Of a stretch of 64,000 nucleotides of DNA, positions 37,223-64,000 are shown piece after piece. The position numbers were made by a program, and so were the translations under genes. The stretch comes from an uncultured Acidobacteriota bacterium (GTDB lineage: Bacteria > Actinomycetota > Acidimicrobiia > Spongiisociales > ZC4RG35). Position 1 is the stretch's first letter. Each line of letters starts with the position of its first letter. The notes beneath the pieces were generated by a model. That model did not search any database and was not told the DNA's origin. It worked only from the letters and a program-made list of their open reading frames with translations. The stretch covers positions 211,581-275,580 of the forward strand of contig CAVTFV010000008.1 of assembly GCA_963734115.1 (NCBI GenBank), written 5' to 3'.

Positions 37223-38173
37223 TCATCCCCTGACTGTCATGTACGCGGAGGGGTCTTTCTCGAAGGCCGCCCGGCATCCCGGGCAGCAGAAGTAATAGGT
37301 CTGACCCTCGTATTCGAACGGGCGACTGCTCTCATCGGCAGGCACGGTCATGCCGCAAACGAGGTCTACGGCGGTGCCTGCGGCTGCGTGCTCATGGCCA
37401 TGACCGGAATGGTGGTGCTCGATGGGCATCGCGTTCGATTCCGCCAGGGGCGCGGGGTCGAAGGCACCCTTGGCCCGAAGCTCCACCAACTCGGCAAGAA
37501 CGGAGACTGCGATTTCGGGATGTGACGTGTGGCCGAGGTCGAGGCCTACGGGGACCCTCACTTGATCCAAGAGGTCACGGGGGACACCCCGTTCGGCGAG
37601 GTAGCCGAGGACCGCCTCGCCACGCTTGGACGAGGCTACGAGCCCCACGAAGGCCGGGCGCGCGTTCACTGCCTGCTCGACCGCCTCCTCGTCACCGTGA
37701 CCCTGAGTGGCGACCACCACGACCGACCAGCTGCCGACATGAGCGGTCTTGAAGTCGGGTACATCGACCAAGTCAGCGCGCCAGCCGACCCCGGCCGCAA
37801 GCTCCACCAGGGTGGCGGCCATTGGGGATCTGCCCACGACCACCAGGTGGGGGCTGGGAAGTACTGGCTCGACATAGAGCTGCAGCGCGCCCTCGGACTG
37901 GCACGACATCTGGACGAACGTCATGCCTTCGGCAACCTCGCCGAACTGGTCGGGGTCGCCGAGCAAGATCAGACGCGGGACCCGTTCTTCGATGGCGCGC
38001 TGCGCCTCCCGAACGACGACCGGCTCGGCACAGGCCCCGCCGATCCAGCCGTGCATCTGGCCGTCGGCAGTGATGATGGCCCGCGACCCTTGCTGCCCTG
38101 AGGAGGGCGCCTGGCGCCAGACCACGGTGGCCAGGGCGAATTCGACGCCCTGGCGGGCGAGATCGCTGGCCAT
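37223..38173 (-). CDS. XdhC/CoxF-family maturation factor fused to a C-terminal YHS (TRASH-like) metal-binding domain
   Basis: XdhC core (VPVGLDLGHTSHPEIAVSVLAE), a His-rich linker (HHHSGHGHEH), then CGMTV...YEGQTYYFCCPGCRAAFEKDP. The start has GGAGG 9 nt upstream. This gene was artificially joined to coxL in the 1183-aa ORF 37223..40774. Confidence 0.8.
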   Translation of the reverse strand: MASDLARQGVEFALATVVWRQAPSSGQQGSRAIITADGQMHGWIGGACAEPVVVREAQRAIEERVPRLILLGDPDQFGEVAEGMTFVQMSCQSEGALQLYVEPVLPSPHLVVVGRSPMAATLVELAAGVGWRADLVDVPDFKTAHVGSWSVVVVATQGHGDEEAVEQAVNARPAFVGLVASSKRGEAVLGYLAERGVPRDLLDQVRVPVGLDLGHTSHPEIAVSVLAELVELRAKGAFDPAPLAESNAMPIEHHHSGHGHEHAAAGTAVDLVCGMTVPADESSRPFEYEGQTYYFCCPGCRAAFEKDPSAYMTVRG

Positions 38174-38208
38174 CTCGATCATCCTCCACCCATCGGCAGG
38201 CTGGGCAC

Positions 38209-40593
<2,385 letters not shown>

Positions 40594-40597
<4 letters not shown>

Positions 40598-41118
40598 CCT
40601 TGATCCTCCAGCTTCTTTGCCGCCCACATGACCGCCTTGACGATGTTCTGGTAGCCGGTGCAGCGGCAGAGATTGCCGCTCAATGCCCATCGGATCTCGT
40701 CCTCGGTCGGGTTCGGGTTCTCCTCGAGCAGGGCCTTGGAGGCCATCATCATCCCGGGAGTGCAGAACCCGCACTGGAGCCCGTGCTCCTCCTTGAACCC
40801 TTCCTGTATGGCGTGCAGCTCACTGGGACCTGCCAGGCCCTCAACGGTCATCACGTCATGCCCGTCGGCTTGGACGGCGAACATCGTGCAGCTCTTCACC
40901 GGCGTGCCGTCGAAGAGCACGGTGCATGCCCCGCAGTTGGAGGTGTCGCAGCCGGTGTGGGTGCCGGTGAGATGGAATCCCTGACGGAGGAGATGGGCGA
41001 GGACGAGACGGGGCTCGACCACGGCTGTTCGGGTCTCGCCGTTGACCGTGACTGTGATCTGCCTCGTCGGCGTCTCCGCGGCCGCCCCCGGGCTGACCTC
41101 TTGGAACAGGCTGGTCAT
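40594..41118 (-). CDS. coxS: CO dehydrogenase small [2Fe-2S] subunit CoxS
   Basis: 174 aa with both cysteine clusters ([11 protein letters not shown] and [10 protein letters not shown]...CRCTGY). Confidence 0.95.
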
Positions 41119-41119
41119 G

Positions 41120-41995
41120 TCAGGCCGCCTCCTCTTCCGATCGAATCAACCCGGTCAGGATCCTGCTGGTGAAGACGCTGACCAGCTGCTTCTTGTAGGA
41201 GGCGCTGCCTCGATGATCGGTCCGGGGTTGGGCTGCCTGCGCCGCCAGCGAGGCGGCCTCACCGATCACATCGGCTGTGAGCGAACTGCCAACCAGCACC
41301 TGGGCGGCATCATCGGCTGAGATGGTCGAAGGACCCACTCCGGTCAGGCCAATGCCCGCCCTGGTGACCTCACGGCCGTTTCGGTCGACGGAAACGGCGA
41401 CCCCGACCGTGGCGAAATCGCCCACGCGGCGCTCCAACTTCAGATAGCCGCCAGCCGGCTCGCCCTGGGGGGCGGGAGCGATCGCCTCCACCACCACCTC
41501 GTCGTAGGCGAGGTTTGTCTGGAACGGGCCGCGGACGAGCTCCTTGACCGGGATTGTCCGCCGGCCACCTTGACCCTGTGCCACAACCGAGGCATCCAAC
41601 GAGACCATCACCGATGCCCAGTCTCCCTGTGGGTCGGCGTGACACAGGGAACCGACCAGAGTGCCGCGATTTCGCACGATCGGGTCGGCGACGAGTGGCG
41701 CCGCCGCAGCCATGGTGGGCTGATGGCCGGCCAGCAACGAAGAGCGCTCCAGGTCGGCGTGACGGCACAGCGCCCCGACGTGGATCGATCCGTCGGCATC
41801 GATCCGGTGATAGTCCAAACCGGCAATCTCGTTGATGTCGACCAGCATCTCCGGGGAAGCGAACCGGAGCTTGATCATCGGGACCAGGCTCTGGCCTCCG
41901 GCCAGCACCTTGGCATCGCCACCCCCGTCGGCCAGGAGCGCGGAAGCTTCCTCGATCGACCTGGGAGCCTCGTAGCGAAATCGAGAGGGGTAGAT
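41120..41995 (-). CDS. coxM: CO dehydrogenase medium FAD-binding subunit CoxM; probable ATC initiation codon
   Basis: FAD-binding motifs ([28 protein letters not shown]). The N-terminus (I)[20 protein letters not shown] aligns to M-I-P-G-S-F-D-Y... of characterised CoxM, so the ATC at 41995..41993 sits at the initiator position. AAGGAGG lies 5 nt upstream. There is no in-frame ATG/GTG/TTG for 75 codons upstream. Confidence 0.85.
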
Positions 41996-42015
41996 GTCTG
42001 CCTCCTTGGTTTGCT

Positions 42016-42462
42016 TCAGGTCTGTGGCCCGAGCTGGTCTTGGGGCCCGGGCTGGGGGGCGGGAGATTCGGGCTCGGGCTGACGGAACGAAGACTGGGGG
42101 TCGGGGACGGCAACGGGTAGGGATTCCGCGGTCGGGTCGGGCCGGGGTTGCTGATGGGGCGGCCAGGGGCCCTGAACCGGCTGACCGGCGACCTTGAAGT
42201 AGTCGATGATCTCCGGCCACGCCCAGATCGTGGGGCTCTCGCCCTCCTTGGGGGCGTTCTCGATCAACTCATACAGCCGGGGATTGCCGCGGCTGTGCCC
42301 GGACGTCTCGACTGCCAAGGTCCACCTCCCAGTCTCGTGGGCCAACCGTTTGCAAACGAACGGCCGGACCACCAATTGCCACAAAGGATTCCGGCTGCAC
42401 CGGAATCCTGCCCGCCGGAACCTTACGCATTCGGCGCCCGTCGCGTCGGCCTTCTTGGCCAT
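42016..42462 (-). CDS. hypothetical protein with Pro-rich C-terminal tail
   Basis: ORF 42016..42522, with the start taken at the internal ATG ([11 protein letters not shown]). The segment [45 protein letters not shown] looks coding-like. This is a weak call. Confidence 0.25.
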
Positions 42463-42551
42463 TACGTCGGCGGCTCGGATCCGGTTCTCGTCGGTACGGC
42501 CAGCACACTTCCGTTTCGGCAAGGATGACCCGAACCTACGATCAGGGTGTC

Positions 42552-43448
42552 ATGACCAACGCAATATCCGTCTCCGGTCTCGTCAAGAACTTCGGGCACG
42601 TCCGGGCCCTCGACGGGCTCGACCTGGAGGTGGCACCCGGCGAGGTTCATGGCTTCCTCGGTCCCAACGGGGCGGGCAAGACCACCACCATCCGCGTCCT
42701 GCTCGGCCTCATCCGCCACGATGCCGGCACAGCTACTTTGTTGGGAGGCGACCCCTGGGCAGGGGCAACCGAGCTCCATCGACGGCTGGCCTATGTCCCC
42801 GGGGATGTGACGCTCTGGCCCAAGCTCACTGGGGGTGAGGTGATCGATCTCCTCGGCCGACTTCGGGGTGGCCTCGACGAGTCGAGAAAGGCGATGCTGC
42901 TGGAGCGATTCGACCTCGACCCCACGAAGAAGGGCCGGACGTACTCCAAGGGCAACCGTCAGAAGGTGGCCCTGATCGCCGCATTGGCCTCGGATGTCGA
43001 GCTCTTGATCCTGGACGAGCCGACTGCCGGTCTGGATCCGCTCATGGAGGAGCAGTTCCGCAAATGCATCGAGGAAGACCGGGCCACCGGGCGCACGGTG
43101 CTGCTGGCCAGTCACATCCTCGCCGAGGTCGAGGCCCTCTGTGACCGGGTCAGCATCATTCGCAAGGGCAAGACCGTGGAGAGCGGGACGCTTTCGGACC
43201 TGCGGCATCTGACACGCACGACCATCAGCGCCGAGTTGAGCTCGGACCCATCACCTGTTGCCGGGCTGTCCGGCGTTCACGACCTACGTCTCCACGATCA
43301 CAAGGTGGAGTTCGAAGTGGACTCCGACCGCCTCGATGAAGTTATCCGGACCCTCGCCCCTCTCGGCGTTCGCAGCCTGGTGAGCCATCCGCCCACACTC
43401 GAGGAGCTGTTTCTCCGGCACTACGAGGACGAAGAGGTCCCGGCGTGA
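42552..43448 (+). CDS. ABC transporter ATP-binding protein
   Basis: Walker [10 protein letters not shown], signature YSKGNRQKV, Walker B LLILDEP. Confidence 0.85.
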
Positions 43449-63502: not shown

Positions 63503-63667
63503 CGTTCGTCGCACGTTTTACGTTCTACGTGAATCGTCCATAGACTTCGCGCCATCACACACGCTTGCTGACCCTCACTGGTCGGGCGAGTCCCGAAAGA
63601 GGGTCATCCGTGCAAAACGGGTAGGCACTGGCCGGCAGGCGGAGGAACAACCAGGAAAGGAGCAGCT

Positions 63668-64000
63668 TTGGCTGTCTCGATGAAGCAACTCTTGGAGGCT
63701 GGTGTCCATTTCGGGCATCAGACCCGCCGCTGGAATCCCAAGATGCGCCCCTACATCTATGGGGAGCGCAACGGGATCCACATAATCGACCTGCGGCAGA
63801 CGGTGGACCAGACCGCCGCCGCTGCCGACTACGTGAGGAATCTCACCTCCGATGGGGGCGTGGTCCTGTTTGTTGGCACCAAGAAGCAGGCCCAGGCGGC
63901 CGTCGCCGAGCACGCCGACCCGTTCCGGCATGCCCTACGTCAACTATCGCTGGCTCGGTGGGATGCTCACCAACTTCCAGACCATCCAGAAGCGCATCTT
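63668..64000 (+). CDS. rpsB: 30S ribosomal protein S2, N-terminal part (gene runs off the window end); frameshift in a C-run near 63918
   Basis: TTG start with AAGGAG 5 nt upstream. The protein begins [26 protein letters not shown] and continues in the +2 frame as [23 protein letters not shown]. Removing one C from GACCCG restores it. Confidence 0.85.

Follow-up and report, generated by a model that had tools for sequence, protein, structure and literature searches.

In the 64,000-nucleotide stretch of DNA analysed here (the window), coxM, the gene for the FAD-binding medium subunit of a carbon monoxide dehydrogenase (CODH), most probably begins at an ATC codon, a reading to which we assign a probability of about 85%. 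We read this ATC start as real because some twenty relatives, each assembled independently, have the same codon; judged from their alignment, it is inherited across a deep clade and is a real, weak start codon, not a sequencing error, and the conserved CoxM N-terminus fits no other start. The initiator had been proposed in a sequence-only reading of the window, and the proposal is upheld by the conservation of ATC at the start position, the Shine-Dalgarno (SD) sequence kept in front of it, the in-frame stops upstream and the constraint that sets in right after it. The features concerned are listed in Table 1.

Table 1. Coordinates, in the window, of the CODH genes, orfX and the candidate coxM start signals.
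Feature	Position	Strand	Remarks
coxM ATC, proposed initiation codon	41993..41995	-	From sequence; aligned with ATG, GTG or TTG of relatives and with Met1 of solved CutM/CoxM
SD sequence AAGGAGG	42001..42007	-	5 nt 5' of the ATC; anti-SD duplex -11.2 kcal/mol
GTG, sole in-frame canonical start 5' of the ATC	42218..42220	-	75 codons upstream; rejected as coxM start
GTG, first in-frame canonical start 3' of the ATC	41906..41908	-	Codon 30; rejected as coxM start
orfX, conserved	42016..42318	-	100 aa; TTG start behind GGGAGGTG; TGA stop 42018..42016, 20 nt before the ATC
coxM, FAD-binding medium subunit	41120..41995	-	291 codons + TGA; Pfam FAD_binding_5 5.8e-43, CO_deh_flav_C 5.3e-22; best PDB matches CutM/CoxM
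coxS, 2Fe-2S small subunit	40594..41118	-	Fer2_2, Fer2; ATG 1 nt past the coxM stop
coxL, large subunit	38209..40597	-	AYRCSFR; ATG overlaps the coxS stop (ATGA)

The operon, orfX-coxM-coxS-coxL with coxM as its first enzyme gene, is that of a form I [MoCu]-CO dehydrogenase in an Acidimicrobiia bacterium: the genes follow the form I order coxM-coxS-coxL, and CoxL carries AYRCSFR, matching the active-site loop AYXCSFR, which we take to be the form I signature. Directly after coxL, at 37223..38182 on the minus strand, lies a gene in which XdhC_CoxI and XdhC_C are fused to a C-terminal YHS/TRASH metal-binding domain; its product could help to mature the MoCu enzyme, both by inserting the cofactor and by handling copper.

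Read on the minus strand, the coxM start region runs ...CC TGA AGC AAA CC AAGGAGG CAGAC ATC TAC CCC TCT CGA TTT CGC TAC GAG..., with CAGAC (42000..41996) as the spacer; the perfect AAGGAGG and the 5-nt distance first described for it are thus borne out by the window sequence. The codons after the ATC encode YPSRFRYE, the conserved CoxM N-terminus. The Pfam FAD_binding_5 match begins 4 residues past the Ile, and the comparison with solved structures places residue 2 of the protein opposite residue 2 of CutM (1FFV_C), and residue 3 opposite residue 4 of Mycobacterium smegmatis CoxM (8UEM_B). The Ile encoded by the ATC therefore occupies the Met1 position of the characterised enzymes, in agreement with the earlier claim that the N-terminus is colinear with characterised CoxM. 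RNA folding from -65 to +45 around the ATC gave z = -0.79, indicating no special structure, and an Rfam scan of 41700..42800 at E<=1 returned no match, and hence no Moco or other riboswitch.

Relatives were collected by scanning one genome per species, which yielded 80 loci, and the codon aligned with the ATC was scored in each. Besides the window, 19 of the 79 genome loci with a full-length match have ATC as the aligned start codon (L001-L011, L013-L015, L017, L029, L031, L034 and L039). The remaining full-length loci have ATG, GTG or TTG at this position, and one of these three codons is aligned with the ATC in 59 loci. The ATC loci come from Acidimicrobiia-type MAGs of unrelated projects, with megahit, SPAdes and nanopore assemblies and both Illumina and nanopore data. 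Metagenome contigs, searched with a degenerate DNA pattern permitting either ATC or ATG, gave 120 hits, 6 with ATC and 114 with ATG, and in 4 of the 6 ATC contigs an upstream canonical start is impossible. By these counts, the recurrence of ATC at one aligned position is far beyond chance.

This recurrence bears directly on the idea of a sequencing or assembly error, in which the true codon would be ATG and its C a miscall. The coxL frameshift described below is a likely indel problem in the window, perhaps not the sole one, and the nanopore MAG L002 has another. The same miscall would, however, have to recur in 6 metagenome contigs and 19 further genome assemblies, which stem from a variety of projects and platforms, in a region where synonymous sites around the ATC are near saturation, and we regard it as vanishingly improbable. 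The ATG-to-ATC miscall for which the sequence-only reading had itself allowed is excluded by the independent Illumina and nanopore assemblies.

A canonical start elsewhere is what gene callers limited to ATG, GTG and TTG propose when they produce CoxM truncations of 274, 261 and 252 aa or extensions of 302-328 aa, the start being either the upstream GTG, with a 75-residue extension, or a downstream GTG or ATG at codon 30 or 40. In the window, though not in most relatives, a GTG does stand in frame 75 codons before the ATC, which is a counterpoint to the ATC start. Its position and distance had been given correctly before, although the codon had been taken for ATG, and it is confirmed that no ATG, GTG or TTG lies in frame between it and the conserved N-terminus. 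Against its use, this GTG lies inside orfX, in another frame; the frame 5' of the ATC is not conserved among relatives and is interrupted by stops in 10 of them; and GC3 falls from 0.80 to 0.63 for the upstream extension. Furthermore, of the 20 ATC loci, a set that includes the window, 15 lack the extension or have it stop-blocked: going 5' from the ATC, their frame reaches a stop before any canonical start. That stop is merely 5-17 codons away in 10 of the 15, and between stop and ATC these short-leader loci contain no other near-cognate codon. The segment 5' of the ATC had been described as R/P/A-rich low-complexity sequence overlapping a possible divergent ORF; it is really the off-frame of the conserved, same-strand orfX and not part of coxM, and the divergent ORF (plus strand, 41994..42197) found no support.

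The downstream starts are not conserved in position. The first of them falls at codon 38 or beyond in 15 of the 20 ATC loci, most commonly at Met codon 40, past the AGGQSL motif, and at codons 73 and 95 in two loci; codon 30 is GTG in just 2 of the 20, and in the window this GTG lies 29 codons after the ATC, not 28 as originally counted. Such starts lie deep in the FAD domain, usually remove AGGQSL and skip residues that align with the N-termini of solved CoxM and CutM. They would also skip codons under purifying selection: across the ATC set, codons 2-17 have a pN/pS of 0.12 and codons 2-39 (a stretch that includes codons 2-29) one of 0.19, against 0.26 for the whole of coxM, with pS at 0.54-0.63 and synonymous sites thus close to saturation. 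From such low values at near-saturated sites, translation therefore appears to begin at or directly before codon 2, and we consider a canonical start on either side of the ATC very improbable. An in-frame CTG 8 codons 5' of the ATC (42019..42017) was likewise rejected: it has no SD, and in L002-L004, L006, L009 and L013 a 1-nt indel brings the orfX TGA into frame there instead.

The upstream gene itself, orfX, is present in nearly all of the 80 related loci, across the form I CODH loci of Actinomycetota. An alignment of 39 sequences has 35 invariant columns and consists of a conserved core followed by a variable, Pro-rich tail. No matches to OrfX were found in Pfam, NCBIfam or the PDB, and the best 120 of its more than 1600 homologs all bear the source name 'hypothetical protein'. 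Its AlphaFold model, with a pLDDT of 62 and two short helices, is too weak for a fold search, and no description of it was found in the CODH literature searched. OrfX may be an unrecognised CODH accessory protein.

The proximity of orfX to coxM invites another account of the ATC, namely that the two are expressed as a fusion through stop-codon readthrough or frameshifting, with the Pro-rich tail as a linker and no need for a start codon. The orfX stop indeed lies 12-48 nt 5' of the ATC in all ATC loci and shares the coxM frame in 11 of the 20, and the tail is linker-like and variable in length. The frame relation is not fixed, however: 1-nt indels in the spacer set the distance at 20, 21 or 22 nt among close relatives, and in the window the two genes are out of frame. 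A slippery heptamer is absent, the ATG orthologs share the same orfX-coxM arrangement, and the perfect SD is conserved at start-codon spacing, where a fusion would make it superfluous. We hold such a fusion to be extremely improbable and retain initiation at the ATC as the preferred reading.

The leader 5' of orfX contains a perfect inverted repeat, AGGATTCCGG-N5-CCGGAATCCT, at 42385..42409, which is kept in L001-L005 with variable loops; in L004 both sides of the stem have changed, from CCGG/CCGG to CCAG/CTGG. It is followed by a second, imperfect palindrome around TTTGCAAAC (42340..42365). Neither of these leader repeats has an Rfam match; they could serve as an operator or form a hairpin in the leader.

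Compared with L001, a locus of 92% identity, coxL of the window has a 1-nt insertion near 38634/38635, and the resulting frameshift, which leaves the window with no intact catalytic subunit, splits Pfam MoCoBD_2 between two successive frames, positions 3-218 falling in the first and 222-283 in the second. The frameshift is a further counterpoint to the ATC start, as this copy of the operon may be decaying or mis-assembled. A different frameshift in coxL of the related nanopore MAG L002 suggests, by comparison, that the insertion in the window is an assembly indel; it may also mark a pseudogene in a decaying copy. Either way, ATC is still conserved in those relatives whose operons are intact. 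The frameshifted coxL is also what favours viewing the ATC as the loss of a start codon, with coxM effectively a pseudogene here. We see only a slim chance of this: the whole-gene pN/pS given above indicates purifying selection on coxM across the ATC clade, the SD is maintained, and in the ATC relatives L001, L004, L006, L010 and L011 coxL is intact, with a length of about 770-800 aa.

On a neighbour-joining tree of CoxM, the window, L001-L011, L013-L015, L017 and L031 make up a large ATC clade in which two ATG reversions are nested (L012, and L019 with L022), and a second, small ATC group (L029, L034 and L039) adjoins the ATG loci L018 and L028. As placed on this tree, ATC has outlasted divergence to protein identities as low as about 73% and has switched with ATG on several occasions. 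All 20 ATC loci have a GGAGG core at similar short spacing, and in them the anti-SD duplex averages -11.4 kcal/mol, with all values at or below -9.5, compared with a mean of -8.7 kcal/mol and a range of -12.9 to +0.4 in loci with canonical starts (Mann-Whitney p = 1.6e-6, not corrected for phylogeny). Of the ATG revertants, L012 has a degraded SD (AAAGGAAGC), and L019 and L022 have retained a strong one, a counterpoint to this SD comparison. This interconversion of ATC and ATG, with a strong SD always beside ATC, amounts to a natural experiment on how a near-cognate start is tolerated or exploited. The orfX start, for its part, is TTG in most of the large ATC clade (42316..42318 on the minus strand of the window; L001-L013 and L015) and ATG in most other lineages, and both leading genes of the operon, orfX and coxM, thus carry weak start codons in most of that clade.

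If translation starts at the ATC, the strong SD would hold the 30S subunit at the AUC and fMet-tRNA would read it with a third-position mismatch; CoxM would hence begin with Met. Initiation of this kind would be inefficient and sensitive to IF3, which would discriminate against the complex, and since coxS and coxL begin next to or within the stop codon of the gene before them, it is likely that the weak start of coxM limits the coupled operon as a whole. Its strong SD would compensate in part for the weak AUC, and ribosomes terminating orfX 20 nt upstream possibly add re-initiation as another partial compensation. A counterpoint to the ATC start is that every measurement of AUC has shown poor initiation, while the enzyme requires its three subunits, CoxM, CoxS and CoxL, at 1:1:1. 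ATC with an SD gives low, above-background initiation in M. smegmatis (PMC4633059), and AUC reaches 1-2% of AUG in Escherichia coli, with the N-terminal Met confirmed (bioRxiv 10.1101/063800). The sequence-only reading had stated that AUC initiation is known only as a very weak event in model bacteria; the weakness is correct, but 'only' is too strict in view of Deinococcus dnaA, whose ATC start was shown by N-terminal proteomics (TMPP) and is conserved among species (Baudet et al. 2010, PMC2830850).

A more speculative view is that the AUC start was selected as a translational throttle sensed through IF3 and is not merely tolerated. It draws on the tight coupling of coxS and coxL to coxM and on the TTG start of orfX in the same clade, and seems to us unlikely. 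The CODH operon would then be held down under stringent IF3 proofreading, and its output would rise once starvation and slow growth make initiation less faithful; in M. smegmatis, this is the condition that induces form I CODH about 50-fold (PMC6794299). If true, an infC-like, IF3-sensed control would act on an enzyme of trace-gas survival.

Within the window, the ATC start looks gene-specific and not the product of a lineage-wide relaxation. A scan of the whole window for a strong SD followed by ATC, ATT, ATA or CTG and a long ORF gave about 100 sites, and no other credible start of these four types was found in the 64 kb, the sites being internal to genes or in shadow frames. The orphan candidates +20881, -31276 and -45916 were set aside as shadow frames; +20881 is the one that was compared with the ORF list, which shows the true gene of that region on the minus strand. 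A tRNA scan of the 64-kb window found no tRNA. As the sequence-only reading had pointed out, rpsB shows the same geometry as coxM, with AAAGGAG, a 5-nt spacer and a TTG at 63668. The rpsB region (63656..63682, plus strand) also has an in-frame ATG 4 codons past this TTG (MKQLLEAG), and because of it the TTG assignment rests on N-terminal homology.

ATC is a permitted start in translation table 11. Two NCBI proteins, P0005 and P0007, begin with Met and match exactly what L006 and L013 encode when translated from the ATC; the NCBI annotation pipeline therefore already uses ATC in some assemblies. Other coxM models are truncated, among them P0033 for L003 and models of the three lengths given above, or extended (P0109 for L014; P0011, P0028 and P0037). 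Gene callers limited to ATG, GTG and TTG mis-model coxM across the whole Acidimicrobiia clade, and this mis-annotation introduces errors into alignments of CoxM and into soil-metagenome surveys of CODH, which is the main practical consequence of our finding. A literature search on coxM together with start codon found nothing relevant.

Taken as a comparative result, the coxM ATC is a new, well-supported instance of a known rarity and involves no new mechanism. The infC gene of E. coli starts with AUU, through which IF3 regulates its own synthesis in a demonstrated loop, and pcnB also starts with AUU. Like infC, coxM has a near-cognate AUN start, with a third base mismatching the initiator anticodon, of the class that IF3 discriminates against; unlike infC, its codon is AUC, and the likeness lies in the shared codon class alone. 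The nearest parallel to the start itself is Deinococcus dnaA, likewise a natural ATC start that is conserved among relatives and was recognised since only ATC yields the conserved N-terminus. Whereas that start was proven by proteomics, the coxM start is supported by comparative evidence, and it differs further in belonging to a metabolic enzyme subunit gene, in an Actinomycetota lineage (Acidimicrobiia), with a perfect SD. As a protein, the product resembles CoxM and CutM of characterised form I CODH (1FFV, 1N5W and 8UEM), with the same domains, colinearity from residue 2, the MSL gene order and AYRCSFR; unlike the characterised genes, which start with ATG, those of the Acidimicrobiia clade combine an ATC start with a small, conserved orfX upstream.
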